A DNA stretch of 52,126 nt from Candidatus Liptonbacteria bacterium RIFCSPLOWO2_01_FULL_56_20 (GTDB taxonomy: Bacteria > Patescibacteriota > Minisyncoccia > UBA6257 > 2-01-FULL-56-20), in contig MHLC01000007.1 in NCBI GenBank assembly GCA_001818655.1, positions 1 to 52,126 on the forward strand, written 5' to 3'. The notes below the pieces were generated by a model that saw only the letters and a program-made list of their open reading frames with translations, had not been told where the DNA came from and searched no databases. A program made the translations under genes and the position numbers. Within the stretch, counting starts at the first letter, position 1. Each line of letters opens with the position of its first letter. Positions 1 to 31,955 of this stretch are shown here, in pieces.

Positions 1-229
1 CTTCTAGGGCCTTGATCCAGTCCTCGTCCTCGCGGACAAGGATGCCCGGGAGGACGTGGATGCGGCCGCTGTCGGGCGCGGGAATGGCGGACAAGAATGC
101 CTCCGCCATTTTGCCGAGGAGGAGGAGCGGGTCAAACGGCGATCCGCCCTTTTTCCCTGCAGCTCGCTCCACTTTGCGTGCGGCGCGGGTGAATTCTTTC
201 ACCTGCTCCGCTGTCCAGTTATACGGCAT
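1..229 (-). CDS. hypothetical protein, N-terminal part (runs off window start)
   Basis: Minus-strand ATG at 229-227 (MPYNWTAEQVKEFTRAARKVERAAGKKGGSPFDPLLLLGK...), GGAGAAG SD-like motif 8 nt upstream, open to the window edge so absent from the ORF track. No family recognised. Confidence 0.4.
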   Translation of the reverse strand, partial: MPYNWTAEQVKEFTRAARKVERAAGKKGGSPFDPLLLLGKMAEAFLSAIPAPDSGRIHVLPGILVREDEDWIKALE

Positions 230-288
230 CGTCTCTTCTCCTTCGCCTGCCGCTCATCCCGCGGGATTGCGGGAACTTAGACAGGTCT

Positions 289-343
289 CTTGGTTGCACG
301 CCAAAGGGCTCAACAATATCAAGCCTTTTGGCGTACAACCAAG
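289..343 (-). promoter_or_regulatory. 22-bp leader hairpin in the 5' UTR of the downstream ORF
   Basis: CTTGGTTGCACGCCAAAGGGCT / AGCCTTTTGGCGTACAACCAAG with an 11-nt loop. The two non-Watson-Crick positions are G:U only in the minus-strand RNA. Confidence 0.4.
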
Positions 344-363
344 CATTATCAATGTGCGCATAT

Positions 364-392
364 ATTATAGCATATCCTGTCAAAAAACGCAA
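364..392 (-). promoter_or_regulatory. sigma70-like promoter (TTGCGT-N17-TATAAT)
   Basis: On the minus strand: -35 TTGCGT (392-387), 17-nt spacer, -10 TATAAT (369-364), about 130 nt upstream of the ATG at 229. Confidence 0.45.
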
Positions 393-477
393 GGGCTGGC
401 ATATCCCTGTCCCGCCCCACAAGCGAGAGTATCCTTTTGGGAGAACCATAAGCGGAGATTCATGCTAAATAACTAAT

Positions 478-621
478 GCGGAGGCTTTTGCTCTTGCGGA
501 AGCTCTCGCAGGCATTTTGAGCTTGGTTCCCGCCTTGGCGGGATCAAAATGCCGAGAGTGCAGGTGGTCAGCGGTCGCTGGAGCCGCTGAACCACCGGTT
601 CCGCAAGAGCAAAAGTCGGAG
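478..621 (+). repeat. family-A palindromic element, copy A1 (outer stem plus two internal hairpins)
   Basis: Ends pair over about 20 bp (479-501 with 599-620). Internal hairpins GGCATTTTGA...TCAAAATGCC and GGTGGTCAGCGG...CCGCTGAACCACC. Homologous to 14388-14533 and 31677-31810. Confidence 0.75.
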
Positions 622-1893
622 CTATTCGATCCCCTCGTACTCACGCACGGTAAGTTGAGAATTGATCTGCCGCATGGTTTCCAAGGCAACCGCAACCACG
701 ATAAGGAGCGCGGTGCCGCTTACGGTCAAGACCGAGAGCCCTGTCAAGCTTTGAATAAGAAGCGGGAGCACGGCGACGAGTCCGAGGAAGGTCGCGCCGA
801 AAAACGTCACGCGGTTCACGATCGCGGCAAAGAACTGCGCAGTCGCCTCGCCGGGCCTGATGCCCGGCACAAACCCCCCGCTCCGCTGGAGATTCTTTGA
901 CAGTTCCTCCGGATTAAAGGTGATCGCGGTATAGAAATACGTGAAGACCACGACCAGAATGAAATACGCCGCGCCGTACAAGAGACGATTATTCAACAGC
1001 TTCGTAACCAGCTCGTTGAACTTCAGCGCGAAATCAACCGAAACAATAGAAGTGATCTGCGCCAGGAATTGCGGGAACAGGAGCACCGAGATCGCGAAAA
1101 TCAGCGGTATCATGCCGGCCTGATTCACCTTGAGCGGCAGGTAGCTTGAAGCGCCGCCGTACATTTTGATGCCGCGCACTCTCCGCGCATAGGTGATCGG
1201 TATTTTTCTCTCGCCCTCGTTCAGATACACGACCCCGGCAACGAGCAGGACGAGCACGATCAAGAATCCGATATAGGTCGGCAGCAGGCTCGGCGTGTAG
1301 GAAGCGAACGCAAGCTGCGCATCTTGAGGAAGGCGGGAAACGATACCCGCCAAAATAATGAGCGACACGCCGTTCCCGATCTTTTGCTCGCTCACGAGCT
1401 CGCCAAGCCAAAGCGTGATCATGGAGCCCGCGGCGATCGCGAGCACGTTCGTCGCCAAACTGAACATGCTCGGCCTGTCGATCACGTTCTGCGCCACGAG
1501 AATATTCAAAAATCCGTACGCCTGGAGCAGAGCGAGGGGAACGGTGAGCATCCGCGAATACTGGTTGAACTTCGCCTGCCCGCGGCTCCCCTCCTCGTAG
1601 TACATCTGCTTGAACTTCGGGAAGATGATGGTCAAGAGCTGCATGATGATGGTGGCGGTGATGTAGGGGCCAACCCCAAGCATGGCGACCGACAAATTTT
1701 CGAGTCCGCCGCCGGAGAAAAGATTCAGGAAGCCCAAGAGCTGGTTGGAGCCGAAAAACGCCTCGAGCCGCGCCGCGTCCACGCCTGGGATGGGGATCGC
1801 GGCAAGGAGCCGGAACGCCACGAGGAGCCCGACCACGATCAAGACCTTTTTCCGGAGGTCTTTTACTTTAAATATCTGGAGAAAACGATTCAT
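622..1893 (-). CDS. secY: preprotein translocase subunit SecY
   Basis: 423-aa multi-TM protein with SecY-typical segments (GVGPYITATIIMQLL, EGERKIPITYARR). Follows rplO as in spc operons. Confidence 0.95.
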   Translation of the reverse strand: MNRFLQIFKVKDLRKKVLIVVGLLVAFRLLAAIPIPGVDAARLEAFFGSNQLLGFLNLFSGGGLENLSVAMLGVGPYITATIIMQLLTIIFPKFKQMYYEEGSRGQAKFNQYSRMLTVPLALLQAYGFLNILVAQNVIDRPSMFSLATNVLAIAAGSMITLWLGELVSEQKIGNGVSLIILAGIVSRLPQDAQLAFASYTPSLLPTYIGFLIVLVLLVAGVVYLNEGERKIPITYARRVRGIKMYGGASSYLPLKVNQAGMIPLIFAISVLLFPQFLAQITSIVSVDFALKFNELVTKLLNNRLLYGAAYFILVVVFTYFYTAITFNPEELSKNLQRSGGFVPGIRPGEATAQFFAAIVNRVTFFGATFLGLVAVLPLLIQSLTGLSVLTVSGTALLIVVAVALETMRQINSQLTVREYEGIE

Positions 1894-1910
1894 ATGGGTC
1901 CCGGCCGCGG

Positions 1911-2354
1911 CTACTCCACGCTGCCGCCCGCCTTTTCGATCTCCATCTTAACATTTTTCGAGACGCGGAGCCCCTTTACCTCGAGGGGCATCGCCACAGA
2001 GGATTTTCCGAGAATTTTTACGTCTCCGCGGTAGCGCGGCGGGATAAGACCCGCGTTTCTCAAGAATTCTTTGTTGACCTCCACCTTGCCGCTCCCGCCC
2101 GGAGCGAGCGGTTTTGCCCTCCTCAAGATTTCCCGGATGTCTATCGTGAACGGCTTGGGATACAGTGGTTTATTCCGGAAGCCGCGGCGCTTTGGCAAGC
2201 GCAAAATAAGGTCGCGTGAAGCAGGACGGATCCGCCGGCCCGCGCGGGATTTCTGGCCCTTGAGGCCGCGGCCGGAATAGGTGCCTCGCTTCCCGCCGCG
2301 GCCGACGCGTTTCCTGGGCCTTTTTTTCAGCCCCTGAAGTTCGTGCATGCGCAT
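1911..2354 (-). CDS. rplO: 50S ribosomal protein uL15
   Basis: RVGRGGKRGTYSGRGLKGQKSR motif. Lies between rpsE and secY. Confidence 0.93.
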   Translation of the reverse strand: MRMHELQGLKKRPRKRVGRGGKRGTYSGRGLKGQKSRAGRRIRPASRDLILRLPKRRGFRNKPLYPKPFTIDIREILRRAKPLAPGGSGKVEVNKEFLRNAGLIPPRYRGDVKILGKSSVAMPLEVKGLRVSKNVKMEIEKAGGSVE

Positions 2355-2365
2355 GGACGTAATGG

Positions 2366-2833
2366 TTATTGCGATAATTGCTTCAAGGCCTCGATGGTTG
2401 CGAGCGCATTCGTGAGCTTATTCGGGGTTCGCCCCAGGCATTTCGCGGTTATGTCTCTGACTCCCGCGAGCCCCAGCACGACGCGAACCGCCCCGCCCGC
2501 TTTGAGGCCGTGGCCTTCTCCCGCGGGCTTGAGGAGCACTCTGGCCGCGCTGTATTTCGCCTCCGCGCGATACAGAATGGTCCGCCCGTCTTTCAAGGGA
2601 ACGGTGATCAGGTTCTTTTTCCCCTCGGCTCTTGCCTTCGCAACCGCAGACGCCACGTCCAACCCTTTGGCGACACCGACGCCGACTTGGCCTTTCTCGT
2701 CGCCGACCGCGACCGTCGCGCGGAAGCGGAATCGTTTCCCGCCGGCGACCACGCGCGTCACCCGGCGCAGGTCAAGCACTTTCTCTTTGAAATCGTCCCT
2801 TTTTACGAATTTTGCAAAGCGTTCTCTCGCCAT
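2366..2833 (-). CDS. rpsE: 30S ribosomal protein uS5
   Basis: VTRVVAGGKRFRFRATVAVGD...GVGVAKG; operon position. Confidence 0.95.
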   Translation of the reverse strand: MARERFAKFVKRDDFKEKVLDLRRVTRVVAGGKRFRFRATVAVGDEKGQVGVGVAKGLDVASAVAKARAEGKKNLITVPLKDGRTILYRAEAKYSAARVLLKPAGEGHGLKAGGAVRVVLGLAGVRDITAKCLGRTPNKLTNALATIEALKQLSQ

Positions 2834-2837
2834 AAAA

Positions 2838-3197
2838 TTATATCTTTAAGCCCTTCTCGCGGGCTCCTTCGCAGAGGGACTGCACGCGGCCGTGGTAGCT
2901 GTACGACCGCCGGTCGAACACCGCACGGGCGATGTGAAGCGTTTTTGCTTTTTCTGCAAGCGCTTCGCCCACCGCGCGCGCTTCCTGCATTCCTGACTTT
3001 CCCTTTCCCAGCTTGAGTCCGCGGCTTGAAGCCGAGGCCAGGGTATGCCCTTTCTCGTCATCTATAAGCTGCGCGTAGATGAACCGGCTGCTGCGGAATA
3101 CCGCGAGTCGGGGCCTCACCGCCGTGCCAAAGATCTTCGCGCGTACGCGGTGAATACGCCGCTTCTGTTTCGCCCGAAAATGTTTCTGGGGATTCAT
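2838..3197 (-). CDS. rplR: 50S ribosomal protein uL18
   Basis: RLAVFRSSRFIYAQLIDD...; operon position. Confidence 0.93.
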   Translation of the reverse strand: MNPQKHFRAKQKRRIHRVRAKIFGTAVRPRLAVFRSSRFIYAQLIDDEKGHTLASASSRGLKLGKGKSGMQEARAVGEALAEKAKTLHIARAVFDRRSYSYHGRVQSLCEGAREKGLKI

Positions 3198-3205
3198 GAA
3201 TGGAG

Positions 3206-3748
3206 TTAGCCCGCGGCAACCGCTTTCTTGCCGACTTTTCGCTTCACGACCTCGCCCTGATACCGTATGCCCTTCCCTTTATACGGCTCCGGCTTCTTGA
3301 GTCCGCGGATCTGCGATGCGACGCGCCCTACGAGCTCCTTGTTGATCCCCGTGATCGTGATGGTATTTTTCTGCGCCGAAATAGCGATCCCCTGCGGCAC
3401 GGGAAAGCGGACCGGCTCGACATAGCCCAGCGAAAGCACGAGCGTGCTACCCTCCATGGCCGCACGATATCCCACGCCCTCGATTTCCAGGGTCTTTGAA
3501 AATCCGGCTGTGACGCCCTCGACCGCGTTGCGGATGAGCGACCACATCGTTCCGCTGTTCGCTCTCGCCTGCGCCGAATCATCGCTCATAGCTACGTCCA
3601 CCTTGTCCGTACCGACCGCGATCTTGATATGCGGCAGGACGTTAAGAGAAAGCGCTCCTTTGGGGCCTTTGACTTCGATATGCGTGGGGGTCGCGACGAG
3701 CGTAACTCCGCTCGGCACCGCCACTGGTTTTTTCGCCAAGCGCGACAT
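3206..3748 (-). CDS. rplF: 50S ribosomal protein uL6
   Basis: Start trimmed from the ORF-track 3763 to ATG 3748 (MSRLAKKPVAVPSGV), 1 nt after the rpsH stop. Confidence 0.93.
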   Translation of the reverse strand: MSRLAKKPVAVPSGVTLVATPTHIEVKGPKGALSLNVLPHIKIAVGTDKVDVAMSDDSAQARANSGTMWSLIRNAVEGVTAGFSKTLEIEGVGYRAAMEGSTLVLSLGYVEPVRFPVPQGIAISAQKNTITITGINKELVGRVASQIRGLKKPEPYKGKGIRYQGEVVKRKVGKKAVAAG

Positions 3749-12193: not shown

Positions 12194-14299
12194 CTATTTT
12201 CTCTTCCCCTCGATGATGAGCTGGGCGATATTGTTCGGCACGGCTTCCCGGTGGCCGAACTCCATAGTGAAACTCCCCCGCCCCTGCGTCATGGAACGAA
12301 GCTGCGTCGCGTAACCGAACATCTCGGAGAGCGGAACTTTCGCGTCGATGACCTTCACGTTTCCGCGGTCGTTCATCGCTTCGATCTTCCCGCGACGCGC
12401 GTTCAAATCGCCGTTCACCTCGCCCAAGAATTCGAGCGGGGTGATCGCCTGCACGTTCATGATGGGTTCAAGGATGACCGGCTTTGCGCGCCGCGCCGCT
12501 TCCTGGAACGCGATGGAACCCGCGATCTTGAACGCCGCCTCGGACGAGTCAACCTCGTGGTAGGAACCGTCATAGAGCGTCGCCTCAACATCGACGACCG
12601 GATATCCTGCGAGCACGCCTTTGTCGGCGGCCTCTTTTACGCCTTTCTCGACCGCAGGGATGAACTCCTGCGGGATCACGCCGCCTTTGATGGCGTTCAC
12701 GAACTCTATCCCTTTGCCTCGCTCGAGCGGCTCGAGGCGGAGCCGCACGTGCCCGTATTGTCCGCGGCCGCCTGACTGACGGATGTATTTCCCTTCCGCC
12801 TCTGCGGCCGCATTGATGGTCTCTTTATAGGCGACCTGCGGCCGGCCGACATTCGCGGCGACGCTGAATTCACGCTTCATTCGATCAACGATGATCTCAA
12901 GATGGAGCTCTCCCATGCCCTGAATAATGGTCTCTCCTGTTTCCTGATCCCCGGATACGCGGAACGTCGGATCTTCCTCTGCCAGCCTGCGGAGCGCGAC
13001 CCCCATTTTCTCTTGGTCTGCCTTGGTCTTGGGCTCGATGCGAATGCCGATAACCGGCTCAGGGAATATGATCTTTTCAAGCACGATCGGCGCATCCGGG
13101 CTCGCAAGCGTATCTCCGGTCGTGGTGTTCTTGAGCCCCACGATCGCGGCGATCTCACCGGCATATACCTCTTCCACCTCTTCCCGCTGGTTCGCGTGGA
13201 GCCGCACCACCCTGCCGATCCGTTCCTGCTCATTCTTCGCGGTATTAAGAATATAAGAGCCGCGCTTTAAGACGCCGGAGTAGTTCCTTATATACGTAAG
13301 CGTTCCCACATACGGATCGGTCGCAATCTTGAACGCGAGCGCCGCGAACGGTTCGCTGTCCGACGGCGTGCGGCTCATCTCGGCGCCGGTCTTGGGGTCG
13401 GTCCCCGCAACCGGCGGGAGATCCAGGGGAGACGGCAGATAATCCACGACGGCATCCAGCACGAACTGTACGCCCTTGTTCTTCAGAGCCGACCCGCAGA
13501 GTATCGGCACGAGTTTGTTCTCAATCACCGCCCTCCGCAGGACGCGCCGCAGATCTTCAAGCGGCAGCGTTTTACCGTCCAGGTAGCGCGACATAAGCTC
13601 GTCGTCCGCGTCGGCGATCTGTTCGACCAGTCGATGACGGAATGCTTTTACCTCTGCCGCCATGCCTTCGGGGACGGAGATCTCCACGATGCGCTCGCCG
13701 TGCTCGCCGTGAAATTCAAACGCCTTCTCTTCCAAAAGATCCACCACGCCGGTGAATTCAGATTCTATCCCTATGGGGAGCTGGACCGGCACCGCATGCG
13801 CGGTCAGCCGCTCGTGGATAGACGCGAGGCTCTTCTCGAAGTTCGCGCCCATGCGGTCGAGTTTGTTGATGAAACAGACGCGCGGCACGCGATACTCGTC
13901 TGCATACCGCCAATTGGTCTCGGACTGCGGCTCCACGCCCGCCACGCCATCAAACACGACGACGGCGCCGTCCAGGACCCGGAGCGAACGCTTCACCTCG
14001 ACCGTAAAATCAATGTGGCCGGGCGTATCTATCAGGTTGACCCGGTGTTCGAATGCCTTGTCGCCGTGCCGATAGGTAGGGATCCAGAATGCGGTCGTGG
14101 CCGCCGAGGTGATGGTGATCCCCCGTTCTCGTTCCTGTTCCATCCAATCCATCACGGTCGTCCCCTCGTGTACTTCGCCGATCTTATGGGACACGCCGGT
14201 ATAGAAAAGCACACGCTCGGAGACCGTGGTCTTCCCTGCATCAATATGGGCGATAATGCCTATGTTGCGAACTTTTTCTATTGGGTATTGTCGAGGCAT
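12194..14299 (-). CDS. fusA: elongation factor G
   Basis: 701 aa; [22 protein letters not shown] GTPase motifs. Confidence 0.96.
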
Positions 14300-14314
14300 G
14301 GGATGTTAACTTGT

Positions 14315-14582
14315 GGCGCAGACCCCTCCTTTCCGCTACCGCTCAAGCTCCCCGGCGAGAGCTTTCGCTGACGATTCGGCCTCGCTCGCTCCGCCTTTTG
14401 GTTTACGGGAAGCTGTCGGAGGCGTCAAAAGCTCGGCCTCCGATCGCGATCGGAGTTTTGACGCCGAGATGCAGGCGGCGGTTCGCCGCAGGAGCGAACC
14501 GAACGCCGGTTCCCGGAAGCCAGAAGGCGGAGCATCGCACCCGCTCGGCCTCATAGCCGCGCGGGGAAAAGGGGTCTGCGTC
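14315..14582 (-). repeat. long-range inverted repeat (arms 14315-14336 and 14561-14582) enclosing copy A2
   Basis: GGCGCAGACCCCTCCTTTCCGC versus the reverse complement of GCGGGGAAAAGGGGTCTGCGTC. About 17-18 of 22 positions pair. Three of the four non-Watson-Crick positions are G:U only in the minus (mRNA) sense. Confidence 0.5.
14388..14533 (+). repeat. family-A palindromic element, copy A2
   Basis: Outer stem GCTCCGCCTTTTGGTTTACGGGAA / TTCCCGGAAGCCAGAAGGCGGAGC. Hairpins GGCGTCAAAA...TTTTGACGCC (with CTCCGATCG/CGATCGGAG inside) and GGTTCGC...GCGAACC. Shares conserved blocks with A1 and A3. Confidence 0.75.
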
Positions 14583-14607
14583 AGCTCTGCCATATCCATT
14601 CCAGATC

Positions 14608-15075
14608 TCATTGCGCGAAGTGGGCGAAAGCTCGGTTGGATTCAGCCATTCGGTGCGTATCCTGCTTTTTCTTGATGGCCGCGCCCTCGTTCTTTGATGC
14701 GGCGATGAGTTCGTCGGCGAGCTTGGCTGCCATGGGCTTCCCTTTCTTCGCGCGGGCCGCATTGATGAGCCAGCGGCTTCCCAAGATGAACCGCCGCTCC
14801 GGCCTGACCTCGCGCGGCACCTGATAGTTCGCGCCTCCGATCCGCCGCGAAGCGACTTCGAGCATCGGCGAAACGTTCTGGAGCGCTTTTTCGAAAACCG
14901 CAAGCGGGCTCTGCTTGGTCTCTTTTTCCACGCGCGCAAGCGCGTCATAGACAACCCGTTCGGCAATGGATTTCTTGCCGTCCCGCATCACGTAATTAAT
15001 GAAACGGCCGAGATCTATACGGCTGTGCTGCGGGTCTGGCTCGTGGTACTTTTTGTATACGCGCTTTTTTCTCAT
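14608..15075 (-). CDS. rpsG: 30S ribosomal protein uS7
   Basis: 155 aa, ...GANYQVPREVRPERR...NRAFAHF. Confidence 0.95.
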   Translation of the reverse strand: MRKKRVYKKYHEPDPQHSRIDLGRFINYVMRDGKKSIAERVVYDALARVEKETKQSPLAVFEKALQNVSPMLEVASRRIGGANYQVPREVRPERRFILGSRWLINAARAKKGKPMAAKLADELIAASKNEGAAIKKKQDTHRMAESNRAFAHFAQ

Positions 15076-16413: not shown

Positions 16414-16485
16414 GCCCCTGTAGTGAAATGGATATCACGCGACGCTTCGGACGTCGTATTCCGGGTTCGAATCCTGGCGGGGGCG
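16414..16485 (+). tRNA. tRNA-Arg (anticodon UCG)
   Basis: Hand-folded cloverleaf: acceptor GCCCCTG/CGGGGGC, D stem GTGA/TCAC, anticodon stem CGACG/CGTCG with loop CTTCGGA, T arm CCGGG-TTCGAAT-CCTGG. CCA is not encoded. Confidence 0.9.
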
Positions 16486-16545
16486 CAATGCCAAAACGGG
16501 TTCCCGCTCCAAACACGTTGGAGCGAGGCTCGCCCTATCGGGCGG

Positions 16546-16564
16546 CGAATCCTGGCGGGGGCGC
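16546..16564 (+). repeat. exact 19-nt duplicate of the tRNA-Arg 3' end (T-loop to discriminator)
   Basis: CGAATCCTGGCGGGGGCGC occurs at 16468-16486 and again at 16546-16564. The copies are separated by a 59-nt hairpin-rich insert. Confidence 0.8.
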
Positions 16565-16626
16565 CGTGAACCGCGCGCGTCATATGCGCCTTTTGATGCA
16601 GACAAGGGCGACCCGCCCTGCGTAAC

Positions 16627-16666
16627 GATAAAAGCAAAACGGGCGCTATGTTGCTCGCGCCCGTTT
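16627..16666 (-). terminator. intrinsic terminator of the small ORF
   Basis: Minus strand: AAACGGGCGC-10 nt-GCGCCCGTTT followed by TGCTTTTAT. Confidence 0.6.
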
Positions 16667-16773
16667 CTTGATGGAATGAAGCTCGCTCAGCGCCTGTGCC
16701 GCACGAACGGGCGCGATACTGCTTACTCCCGTTTCTTGGTGGGACGGCGCTCGCGGAGCGCCTGTGCCGCACG
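16638..16773 (-). repeat. diverged tandem duplication (2 x 68 nt, about 80 % identity) covering the ORF 3' end and terminator
   Basis: Units 16638-16705 and 16706-16773 align base for base (AACGGGCGC...CCCGTTTCTTG...GCTCGC..AGCGCCTGTGCCGCACG). Confidence 0.7.
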
Positions 16774-29669: not shown

Positions 29670-31955
29670 ATGCCCGACCTCGGCCCGCGCTACGAGCACA
29701 AAGAGATCGAGGAGAAAATTTATCGGCTTTGGGAACGGTCCGGGTATTTTAACCCGGATAATTTGCCTGACGCGCACAAACGCAAGCCCTATTGCATCAT
29801 AATGCCGCCGCCGAACGCGAACGGCCCGCTTCATATCGGCCACGCGCTTTTCGTAACCTTAGAAGACATTATGATCCGCTACTCGAGGATGCGCGGCAAG
29901 CGCACGCTCTGGCTGCCTGGCGCAGACCACGCCGGATTTGAAACCCAGGTGGTCTTTGACGGGAAACTGGAAAAAGAGGGGCGGAATCGCTTTACCATGA
30001 ACCGCGATGCGCTGTGGAAAGAAATGTGGGATTTTACGCAAGAGAATAAAAAGACTATGGAAGCGCAGCTGCGCAAGCTCGGCGCGTCCTGCGATTGGTC
30101 ACGGGAAGTGTTCACCCTGGAGCCGAGGGTGGTCGAGCAGGTGTATGCGACGTTCAAGAAAATGCACGACGACGGCCTCGTGTACCGCGATCTGCGCGTG
30201 GTGAACTGGTGCCCAAAACACAGAACCGCACTTTCCGATTTGGAAGTGAAATATGTGGAGAAAACCGACCCGCTCTACTACATCAAGTACGGGCCGCTCA
30301 CCTTGGCCACGGTCCGGCCGGAAACCAAGTTCGGCGACACCGCGCTCGCCGTAAATCCAAAAGACAAGCGTTATCAGAAATACGTCGGAAAAACCATAGA
30401 GGCGAAAGGGGTCTTGGGTCTGCTCACGTTCAAGGTGATCGCGGACGAAGCAGTAGACCCGCATTTTGGCACGGGCGTGGTCAAGGTCACTCCGGCGCAC
30501 GACCAAGCCGACTACGAGATCTGGCAACGGCACAAGAACGAGATCCCGGGTCCGAAAACCATCATCGGCGAGGACGGCCGGCTTACGGACGAAACCGGGA
30601 AGTTCAAAAGACTAAAAGTCGCTGAGGCGCGGGCGCGCGTCGCAGAAGCGATACAGAAGATCGGCATACTGGAGAAAGTTGACCCGAACTACGTCCACCA
30701 AGTCGCGACGTGCTATAAATGCGGCTCTACCTTGGAACCCTTGCCAAAACCGCAGTGGTTCGTAAAGATGCAGCCGCTCGCAAAAAAAGCGATCGCCGCT
30801 GCGCAAAAAATCAAATTCTTCCCATCGCACTCCAAAAAGGTCTACCTCCACTGGCTAAAAAACATCCGCGACTGGAACATTTCCCGGCAAATCGTCTGGG
30901 GCATACGCATCCCGGCATGGTTTAGGAGGAACGAGATCGCGATCAGCGCGGAGAGTCCTGGACCCGGCTGGCAGCAAGACCCCGACGTGTTTGACACTTG
31001 GTTCTCGTCCGGGCAGTGGCCCTTCATTGCTTTGGGCTTTAAAGAAGGTGGCAAATCCCGACGCAAGGTCGGGACTCCGATCCCGACGCCGACTCCGGGT
31101 CGGGACGTCGGCGCCGAAGCGTCGGAGGATTATAAAACCTTTTACCCGACCGACGTGATGGAAACCGGCTACGATATCCTGTTTTTCTGGGTGACACGGA
31201 TGGTCATGTTCGGCCTCTACCGCACCGGGAAAGTCCCGTTCAAGGCAGTATATCTCCACGGCTTGGTGCGCGATAAAGACCGGCAGAAAATGTCCAAATC
31301 AAAAGGCAACGTGATCGACCCCCTTGGCGTTGCCGATACCTACGGCACGGATGCAGTGCGGATGGCGCTCGTCGCCGGCAACACTCCCGGAAAAGATACT
31401 GCTATTTCCGAGGACAAAATCCGGGCGTATAGGAATTTCGCGACCAAGGTCTGGAATATCGCGCGATTTATCCTTATGCATAAGCCCGGCCGGGCGGTAA
31501 AGCCAGTCCTCTCTGCCGCCGACCGCACGCATATTGCCCACGCGCAAAAGGTAAAATCCCAGGTCGCGAAGCATATAGAAAAATTCGAATTTCACCTCGC
31601 GGCAGAAAAAACCTACCACTACATCTGGCATACGTTTGCGGACAAGATCATAGAGGAATACAAGCCGCGACTTAGAGCCGCAGCAAGCCCTGAGGAAGCT
31701 CTCGGAGTCGCGCCGGGCTTGGTCTCCGAAGGAGCCGGCGCGCCGAGAGCGCAGGCGGTCGGCGGCCGCCGGAGCCACCGAACCGCCGGTTCCGAAGAGC
31801 TTGCTGCGGCGGAAAATCAAGCAGCTGCTTACCATACCCTGGAAACGATTCTTATAGAATGCCTCACCATGCTCCACCCGTTCATGCCGTTCATCACCGA
31901 AGAGATCTTCCGCAACCTCCGCCCCCGCTCTCTTCTTATGGTTCAGCCGTGGTGA
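29670..31955 (+). CDS. valS: valyl-tRNA synthetase (short form)
   Basis: PPPNANGPLHIGHAL (HIGH), WLPGADHAGFETQ (ValRS-type), KMSKSKGN. 761 aa including two inserted repeat-encoded segments. Confidence 0.88.
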   Translation: MPDLGPRYEHKEIEEKIYRLWERSGYFNPDNLPDAHKRKPYCIIMPPPNANGPLHIGHALFVTLEDIMIRYSRMRGKRTLWLPGADHAGFETQVVFDGKLEKEGRNRFTMNRDALWKEMWDFTQENKKTMEAQLRKLGASCDWSREVFTLEPRVVEQVYATFKKMHDDGLVYRDLRVVNWCPKHRTALSDLEVKYVEKTDPLYYIKYGPLTLATVRPETKFGDTALAVNPKDKRYQKYVGKTIEAKGVLGLLTFKVIADEAVDPHFGTGVVKVTPAHDQADYEIWQRHKNEIPGPKTIIGEDGRLTDETGKFKRLKVAEARARVAEAIQKIGILEKVDPNYVHQVATCYKCGSTLEPLPKPQWFVKMQPLAKKAIAAAQKIKFFPSHSKKVYLHWLKNIRDWNISRQIVWGIRIPAWFRRNEIAISAESPGPGWQQDPDVFDTWFSSGQWPFIALGFKEGGKSRRKVGTPIPTPTPGRDVGAEASEDYKTFYPTDVMETGYDILFFWVTRMVMFGLYRTGKVPFKAVYLHGLVRDKDRQKMSKSKGNVIDPLGVADTYGTDAVRMALVAGNTPGKDTAISEDKIRAYRNFATKVWNIARFILMHKPGRAVKPVLSAADRTHIAHAQKVKSQVAKHIEKFEFHLAAEKTYHYIWHTFADKIIEEYKPRLRAAASPEEALGVAPGLVSEGAGAPRAQAVGGRRSHRTAGSEELAAAENQAAAYHTLETILIECLTMLHPFMPFITEEIFRNLRPRSLLMVQPW
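31056..31127 (+). repeat. family-B hairpin element, copy B2: 72 nt, codon-aligned inside valS
   Basis: TCCCGACGC...GCGTCGGAG with internal GTCGGGA/TCCCGAC arms and the CGGGACTCCGA core. Encodes SRRKVGTPIPTPTPGRDVGAEASE. Confidence 0.7.
31677..31810 (+). repeat. family-A palindromic element, copy A3: about 135 nt in-frame inside valS
   Basis: Outer stem GCCGCAGCAAGC/GCTTGCTGCGGC. Conserved blocks GAAGCTCTCGGAG, GCTTGG, GCCGAGAGCGCAGGCGGTC, GGAGCC, GAACCGCCGGTTCC. Encodes AAASPEEALGVAPGLVSEGAGAPRAQAVGGRRSHRTAGSEELAAA. Confidence 0.75.

Follow-up and report, generated by a model that had tools for sequence, protein, structure and literature searches.

Rickettsia palindromic elements (RPEs), reportedly described by Ogata et al. 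in 2000, are the closest precedent for the structured repeat that is the subject of this report. RPEs are palindromic multi-copy repeats of 100-150 bp, located between genes as well as in frame inside unrelated housekeeping genes, where they occupy sites that the protein fold tolerates and are translated, and they encode a conserved peptide (PMC10969869). We analysed a 52,126-nt stretch of Candidatus Liptonbacteria bacterium RIFCSPLOWO2_01_FULL_56_20 (contig MHLC01000007.1; the whole stretch is called the window), in which valS, the gene of valyl-tRNA synthetase (ValRS), carries an in-frame copy of a repeat designated family A. The valS insert is probably a structured repeat, mobile and non-autonomous, which a permissive ValRS loop tolerates and which is translated with the enzyme, a scenario like that of RPEs.

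Family A resembles RPEs in several respects. Its copies are 134-146 nt long and numerous, with three of them in the 52-kb window; they are found in frame in unrelated genes (ValRS, FolD and a histone-deacetylase family), in ValRS at a fold-compatible site, an inter-helix loop modelled with low confidence; and they reside in a bacterial lineage with small genomes, with no associated transposase known. The first-pass annotation, made from the letters of the window, had ranked the use of one element family as both intergenic structure and coding insert as the most unusual feature of the window; with RPEs as precedent, it is less unprecedented than this implied. Unlike RPEs, the coding copies of family A have both orientations and differing frames and encode no conserved peptide. 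Conservation is found in the core junction, and the terminal stem and all helices have diverged by compensatory changes. Of the 60 or so copies only about three are intragenic, compared to nearly half in some RPE families. The hosts, all of them Patescibacteria, belong to a different phylum, and a sequence relationship was neither seen nor expected. Family A works like an RPE, but it is neither an RPE nor a classical MITE (miniature inverted-repeat transposable element).

A structured insert in the valS gene

The valS gene (29670..31955, + strand, 761 aa) was delineated from its open reading frame (ORF), Pfam domains, orthologues and an AlphaFold2 model. It is otherwise intact: one frame continues across both sides of the insert, and the insert is free of stop codons. 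The protein is 70-79% identical to its orthologues. Its linker from EEYKP to HTLE has 55 residues, compared to 14 in most of the 48 aligned orthologues, where the usual sequence is RL[RQ]xxNxxDKLAAY, in agreement with the earlier estimate of about 55 and 14 residues after EEYKP. An in-frame insert of about 45 codons had also been claimed. The element does span 134 nt, in frame and without stops, though the net surplus in the linker is 41 codons; therefore, about four host codons were replaced or later lost. In the closest orthologues (L111 and L112, 77-79% identity over conserved alignment columns) the site is empty, and the TsaD-ValRS-PrsW-HSP20 neighbourhood is syntenic between them and the window. 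Thus, the search for empty sites proposed earlier made the insertion evident in the alignment.

The element in valS (31677..31810, + strand) lies in sense and in frame, encodes AAASPEEALGVAPGLVSEGAGAPRAQAVGGRRSHRTAGSEELAAA, and was recognised by search pattern, fold, covariance model and terminal arms. It is 134 nt long, close to the family's typical ~135 nt, and is bracketed by inverted 21-nt arms (31677-31697 and 31790-31810) that are 86% complementary. A three-way junction is the minimum free energy RNA fold of this copy (-89.1 kcal/mol, z = -5.0), in which the stems GCCGCAGCAAGC/GCTTGCTGCGGC and CGCGCCGG/CCGGCGCG form. All five conserved blocks named in the first-pass annotation were found, in the order given there. 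The covariance model matched positions 31678-31809 with 118.2 bits (E ~1e-28) over model positions 1-134. This score, within the range of the intergenic copies, bears out the kinship that had been claimed with the elements after secY and in the rpsG-fusA spacer; the covariation test that the annotation had suggested was strongly positive.

A repeat-induced chimera could also place a multi-copy repeat inside valS in a metagenome-derived contig, and the exact ValRS protein is on record in no other assembly. Such an assembly artefact is nevertheless extremely improbable. Both flanks continue the valS frame precisely; the copies in the contig are ~65-70% identical, so that assemblers would not collapse or swap them; and analogous in-frame inserts at the same loop come from independent datasets (orthologues P0010 and P0005).

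At the protein level, Pfam recognised tRNA-synt_1 and Anticodon_1, the latter broken into two stretches. In the AlphaFold2 model (predicted local distance difference test score, pLDDT, of 84; predicted template modelling score, pTM, of 0.81) the insert lies between the long helices 641-669 and 706-735, and residues 682-703 have pLDDT <50. According to the model, the insert leaves the helical anticodon-binding domain as a disordered excursion, in line with the surface loop for which such a model had been proposed as a check, and the loop probably faces away from the catalytic and tRNA-binding surfaces. The insert peptide is rich in Ala, Gly, Pro and Arg, with tryptic peptides AQAVGGR, TAGSEELAAAENQAAAYHTLETILIECLTMLHPFMPFITEEIFR and a long one beginning AAASPEEALGVAPGLVSEGAGAPR. 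An HMMER search with the 45-aa peptide found no homologue at E <=0.001 among 1.84 billion representative proteins; therefore, the insert is not a protein module.

The same observations bear on a possible co-option of the insert for a function in the protein, such as that of a basic flexible arm that aids tRNA binding or recruits a partner. It is Arg-rich, the loop has been occupied repeatedly in several ValRS lineages with remnants in frame, and ValRS orthologues of the candidate phyla radiation (CPR) have many lineage-specific inserts and fusions. Still, we regard co-option as quite improbable, given that the insert peptides of family A, of its relative family B, and of A in different frames have no sequence in common, that the protein search was empty, that the segment is predicted to be disordered, and that it is missing from the closest relatives.

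The window ValRS has a second lineage-specific insert at 31050-31125 (residues 461-484, …KSRRKVGTPIPTPTPGRDVGAEAS…), also with pLDDT <50 in the AlphaFold2 model. Its DNA has repeated CCCGAC/GTCGGG palindromes (fold z = -2.4) and may be another small palindromic insertion. Among CPR orthologues, inserts of 10-20 aa occur at at least six sites other than the family-A loop, and a length of 850-1100 aa together with a histidine-phosphatase (PF00300) fusion is seen in many ValRS proteins of Patescibacteria (e.g., P0009, P0018, P0024 and P0026).

The first-pass annotation offered three outcomes for the insert: translation, removal or bypass of the structured RNA, and modulation of valS translation. 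Translation is favoured, because other genes also contain family A in frame, be it in sense or in antisense, and because in orthologue P0005 the frame of a related insert has outlasted the fold. We infer that the valS insert is translated and not removed; removal or bypass was left without any supporting sign. For a fold that is autonomous and very stable, has paired ends and sits inside an essential gene, one might imagine excision like that of an intron, RNase cleavage with subsequent religation, or translational bypassing as in T4 gene 60, and self-splicing introns are known in CPR rRNA genes. This possibility is hardly credible. Rfam gave no intron or ribozyme match even at E up to 10, and group I and group II introns need catalytic domains of several hundred nucleotides, for which an element of 134 nt has no room. 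Loss of the 134 nt from stem to stem would put valS out of frame, there is neither a stop codon nor a take-off/landing codon pair for bypassing, coding copies exist in both orientations, and a decayed copy persists in frame. An intein was rejected as well: the insert has 45 aa, compared to at least ~130 aa for a Hint domain, and Pfam finds only ValRS domains.

The course of events that we propose starts with a family-A copy that would have been inserted, in sense, in the linker between the two long helices of the anticodon-binding domain. With the open frame kept, the insert would stay in the valS mRNA, and its translation would produce a disordered surface loop rich in Ala, Gly, Pro and Arg, with ~41 extra residues, that the enzyme tolerates. 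Over time, such an insert would decay or be trimmed, as the inserts of orthologues P0005 and P0006 seem to have been.

Distribution and covariation of family A

Copies of family A were searched for with the composite pattern GGAAGCTNTCGNAG..GCCGAGA..CCGGTTCC. It had three matches in the window (498-602, 14408-14513 and 31694-31793), compared to 0.00 expected from shuffles; the three copies are all on the + strand, with ~65-70% mutual identity. Among GTDB species genomes the strict pattern found 17 loci, all in metagenome-assembled genomes (MAGs) of CPR/Patescibacteria, with hosts in Liptonbacteria, Jorgensenbacteria, Paceibacterota and others. A slightly looser pattern selected 88 metagenome stretches, ~60 of which were true members by covariance-model search; the metagenomes contributed ~45 further distinct copies beyond the GTDB loci. 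About 20 of the 80 metagenome pattern matches listed, mostly 105 nt long and from soil contigs, had no covariance-model match and were set aside as chance or as an unrelated conserved gene. Two pattern matches in IMG/VR viral contigs were likewise not recognised by the model, so that IMG/VR yielded no copy of A. One MAG had at least five copies in five loci.

The family is defined by the covariance model R1, built from 20 copies; the 21 strict-pattern copies (3 in the window and 18 in the GTDB loci) score 69-131 bits with it. In 59 distinct copies, 95.1% of cells were paired, compared to 65.3% in shuffled alignments, and the covariation score was 0.75, compared to 0.17 for shuffled and 0.11-0.14 for slid controls; none of 500 shuffles reached the observed value. 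Double changes were seen in 40 of the 43 pairs. The terminal stem P1, which closes the three-way junction, is the most variable helix, with double changes in 14 of its 14 pairs. While every helix varies, the junction and loops are conserved (GGAAGCUcUCGgAGG, GCUuGG, gCCGAGAgGCAGg, CGCuGGA and cCGGUUCC). The core consists of GGAAGCUNUCGNAGG, GCUYGG, GCCGAGA-GCAGG, the CGCNGGA loop and CCGGUUCC; its conservation is in part forced by the search pattern, with AGG, GCUYGG, GCAG and CGCNGGA unforced. We also weighed a 4-bp pseudoknot joining the GCUYGG bulge to the GGAGC loop but dropped it, because the partner is missing in several copies.

Rfam 15 has no family for these elements: in the window, four tRNAs alone reach the gathering threshold, and around the three copies, at E up to 1-10, there were only chance-level miRNA and viral matches. 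In the literature we found no paper describing elements like families A and B in CPR.

Intragenic copies and reading frames

Among ~60 copies, three were truly intragenic and in frame. Besides valS, a gene of the histone-deacetylase family (L007 and L049) carries a copy in sense, spanned by a single Pfam match, and a FolD gene (L012) carries one in antisense, with Pfam domains flanking it on both sides. The valS and deacetylase copies, both in sense, differ in frame over the first half. The claim that the valS copy is stop-free and preserves the frame was true, but within the family stop-freeness is unremarkable: on average 3.2 of the six frames of a copy are free of stops, and 32 of 59 copies have no stop in the frame that valS uses. 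As about half of the frames are open, in-frame survival needs no special mechanism.

Several other overlaps were not counted as coding insertions. Elements within ligA, pilin-like and SIMPL-like ORFs precede the real start codon, and the ORF at L061 that contains a copy is antisense junk. A search for proteins with translated copies, made with a concatenated six-frame peptide query, returned only the window ValRS, with the index probably swamped by low-complexity words.

Repeated occupation of the ValRS loop

The loop occupied in the window has been occupied in other ValRS lineages. Orthologue P0010, found in two contigs, has a 130-nt in-frame insert at the same loop (L018:10247-10376). It matches the A model weakly (34 bits) over the full length and with the same three-way topology; from its core blocks (UCUCGGAGGC, GCAUGG, GCCGAGAG and CGCUGG) it was assigned to family B. 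This family is a distant relative of A with the same topology, 24-46 bits with the A model, and core blocks UCUCGGAGGCCGAGCGGGCAUGG ... GAGCGAGGCCGAGAGCGAGCG ... CGCUGGG. Further B copies are at L011:3012-3147, L011:1022-1153, L003:6378-6524 and L002:3557-3688. The insert of P0005 (L019:12035-12175), seen in a JGI and in a Logan assembly, is homologous to that of P0010, ~60% identical and in frame; its fold is lost (z = +0.2, compared to -6.2 in P0010).

At this same site orthologue P0006 (L113:2504-2518) has the exact 15-mer CGAACCGCCGGTTCC, that of the A 3' core; like the window copy it encodes RTAGS, and ~35 nt of a diverged A 3' stem come after it. Across 860 kb of collected loci, a 14-mer of the A core is, apart from P0006, confined to A copies; therefore, the P0006 site is best read as what a deletion has left of an A copy. 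A neighbour-joining ValRS tree groups P0005 with P0006 as sisters, puts the window on a separate branch and P0010 at a distance, and suggests several independent occupations of the loop by A and B elements, followed by erosion.

With regard to other orthologues, we observed that the P0017 linker (...SSSQKEN...) resembles a translated 3' stem of B, and that the P0002 linker is below the normal length, as if an element had been imprecisely deleted. Remnants or decayed A/B copies at the loop were noted for P0006, P0005, P0017 and P0092.

Probable mobility and selection on the fold

Several copies recur in different contexts. Across 171 nt, window copy 2 together with its family-B frame has 94.7% identity with L092:1868-2038, a copy from another organism that is situated between fba and the L25 gene and not between rpsG and fusA. 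Identical copies occupy two loci of one MAG (L014 and L016). Window copy 1 and the copy at L090 have a common terminal stem, different contexts and compensated changes inside. From this we infer that family A behaves as a non-autonomous mobile element. A terminal stem derived from the target, by insertion into an existing hairpin, is unsupported for valS: the orthologous empty valS sites have no such hairpin, and the same stem travels with the element to different contexts.

The fold itself is maintained in place: orthologous intergenic copies (L003, L004 and L005, with flanks at least ~85% identical) differ mainly by transitions, for which there is compensation in both the terminal stem and the right arm. 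On the model strand, G·U pairs exceed A·C mismatches 78:44 (p ~0.003); the ratio is 25:13 in copies sense to host genes and 34:15 in antisense copies, figures to be read as indicative, the copies being related to one another. Since the excess does not depend on orientation, the relevant single strand would be the element's own, as RNA or single-stranded DNA, and not the host mRNA. One strand of the element, when folded, would then be what selection preserves.

These data also bear on the third outcome named in the first-pass annotation, modulation of valS translation by the mRNA structure, here widened to a structure that is kept in the valS mRNA for a role in cis (ribosome pausing between the helices, tuning of translation or of mRNA half-life, or binding of a factor), with the peptide as a by-product. 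The valS copy keeps essentially every base pair and scores 118 bits, and no close donor copy is seen; the compensatory changes in orthologous intergenic copies show that the fold matters somewhere; and the 78:44 excess of G·U is on the strand that valS transcribes. We nonetheless find a cis role unlikely. The FolD coding copy is antisense, the B insert in P0005 has lost its fold yet is retained in frame, the G·U excess is equal in sense and antisense copies and thus does not track host mRNAs, and most ValRS orthologues have no insert at all.

Several observations weigh against the reading that we prefer, a translated mobile repeat tolerated in a permissive loop. At the boundaries of 60 copies, with the terminal stem extended for as long as pairing continued, there was no target-site duplication, nor was there a conserved terminal repeat or a target motif or tetranucleotide. 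All-against-all clustering of the ORFs in ~50 loci produced only housekeeping families and no recurrent transposase, reverse transcriptase or nuclease. Family A is not simply decaying junk, with pairing kept in the orthologous intergenic copies. All four A/B occupations of ValRS are in one loop, despite the orthologue inserts at at least six other sites, and selection alone may be insufficient to explain this. The exact valS allele was found in no other assembly. Our main unease is over a structurally perfect valS copy for which no close donor was sampled; the nearest relative among the sampled copies has only 64% identity. Either the copy is recent and came from an unsampled donor, or the structure has been maintained inside the coding sequence, and the latter, if true, would indicate a role at the RNA or DNA level.

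A broader proposal is that A and B represent an undescribed class of mobile structured nucleic acids, widespread in Patescibacteria, with a functional conserved junction core, one active strand, real site preferences and roles at the host level. We hold this to be doubtful, though less so than a cis role in the valS mRNA. If it were true, the active strand would be RNA or a single-stranded DNA intermediate of transposition or homing. Insertion would favour positions abutting stop codons, positions upstream of promoters, the sister element's apical hairpin and, repeatedly, one valS loop. The intergenic copies would have host roles as, e.g., 3'-end hairpins, insulators or sequestration of the fusA ribosome-binding site, and the valS copy would mark a site-directed insertion rather than a filtered accident.

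Intergenic copies and family B

The other two family-A copies in the window are intergenic. Copy 1 (482..618, + strand; z = -8.4; 125.2 bits) has its 3' end at a distance of 3 nt from the secY stop codon; secY is on the - strand (622..1893), and the copy is therefore antisense to it. Copy 1 is also present with 100% identity in an independent contig (L083). Copy 2 (14392..14529, + strand; 111.4 bits) lies in the rpsG-fusA spacer, antisense to the operon, inside a family-B element (approximately 14316..14585, - strand) whose apical hairpin it is nested in. This B element was recognised by conserved B flanks and fold and is sense to rpsG-fusA. The positions of both copies had been given correctly in the first-pass annotation, which missed their antisense orientation to the operons and the nesting in B. 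The region 14296-14612 of the - strand folds with -151 kcal/mol (z = -4.1). The outer stem of B pairs 14316-14334 with 14567-14585 (GCAGACCCCUUUUC / GGAAAGGAGGGGUCUGC); the latter arm contains the Shine-Dalgarno sequence of fusA, and the predicted stem could sequester the ribosome-binding site of this gene. Neither promoters nor terminators were detected near copies 1 and 2 by simple scans.

About one fifth of the A copies are nested, reversed, in the apical hairpin of a B element, and this composite is itself multi-copy. The orientation of intergenic copies relative to neighbouring genes was mixed overall. Where a stop codon lay within 15 nt, a convergent gene was at the 3' end of the element in 13 cases, compared to 1 for the 5' end. 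A sigma-70-like promoter motif was found on the same strand within 70 nt past the 3' end in 9 of 57 copies, compared to 0-1 in three control configurations. Several 3' flanks have GAGCNCCTTGAC in common. A DnaA box (TTATCCACA) was found 7-19 nt past the 3' end in four copies of different organisms, exact at L010:2276, L081:1519 and L095:1464 and with one mismatch at L032; it is positioned between the element and a promoter-like motif at L010, L081 and L032, while L095 has no promoter call. These copies may reflect a context close to dnaA/oriC or an extension specific to a subfamily. Head-to-head inverted pairs, with 18-77 nt between the copies, were observed at five intergenic sites (L061:4838-5158, L098:743-1060, L047:4615-4908, L074:156-449 and L084:12447-12799).

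Some features of the window are separate from the elements. Window positions 1-3256 correspond at 100% identity to L083:3256-1, a 7-kb metagenome contig (Ga0209518_1008328) that reaches ~3.8 kb beyond the window; positions 1-476, downstream of secY, have no convincing ORF. Further on, a partial copy of a tRNA 3' end (16540-16567) is located 78 nt after the tRNA at 16414-16485 and is followed by two tandem 68-nt repeats (16638-16773, 81% identical). The region 16414-16773 could be an integration scar or belong to another repeat family.

Comparison with other repeat families

Like classical MITEs (e.g., Correia/NEMIS elements), family A is short, non-autonomous, multi-copy and foldable, often sits near gene ends or promoters, and can form in-frame fusions with ORFs. 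Unlike them, it has no conserved terminal inverted repeats, its termini being the most variable part, and no target-site duplication, and no parent insertion sequence (IS) or transposase was found in ~60 loci.

Repetitive extragenic palindromic (REP) sequences and bacterial interspersed mosaic elements (BIMEs), as well as enterobacterial repetitive intergenic consensus (ERIC) sequences or intergenic repeat units (IRUs), all of them intergenic repeats of Proteobacteria, are similar to family A in being structured and in transcribed regions, in lying just after stop codons or between operon genes in either orientation, and in forming some inverted pairs. ERIC sequences (~127 bp) can host internal insertions, which recalls the nested composites of A in B. 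However, REPs are simple hairpins of 20-40 nt linked to REP-associated tyrosine transposases (RAYTs), and the size of A does not fit; in ~50 loci, as distinct from whole genomes, no recurrent RAYT- or transposase-like ORF was seen. ERIC is a single long imperfect hairpin, whereas A is a three-way junction with a conserved core. Unlike A, neither REP nor ERIC is typically in frame in essential genes.

Elements of the IS200/IS605 type and the palindrome-associated transposable elements (PATEs) derived from them have neither target duplication nor terminal inverted repeats, and a strand-specific folded single strand is their active form. The excess of G·T over A·C on one strand of A would fit such elements. 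On the other hand, no TnpA or TnpB gene is near the A loci, there is no conserved 5' target tetranucleotide, and A is one closed three-way junction and not two subterminal hairpins.

Significance

The motif itself is unusually clean and is uncatalogued, with a covarying junction, a strand-specific G·U signal, nesting and positional rules. For annotation, such inserts can break domain calls, as with the split of Anticodon_1, and translated intergenic copies can be mistaken for genes.

The genomes of CPR/Patescibacteria are tiny and considered poor in repetitive and mobile DNA. In the present case, a repeat family colonises their spacers and occasionally writes loops of 40 residues into essential enzymes (ValRS, FolD and the deacetylase). 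This would be a second, independent case of the phenomenon known from Rickettsia as "selfish DNA in protein genes", and it would be a concrete source of the numerous lineage-specific inserts in CPR proteins.

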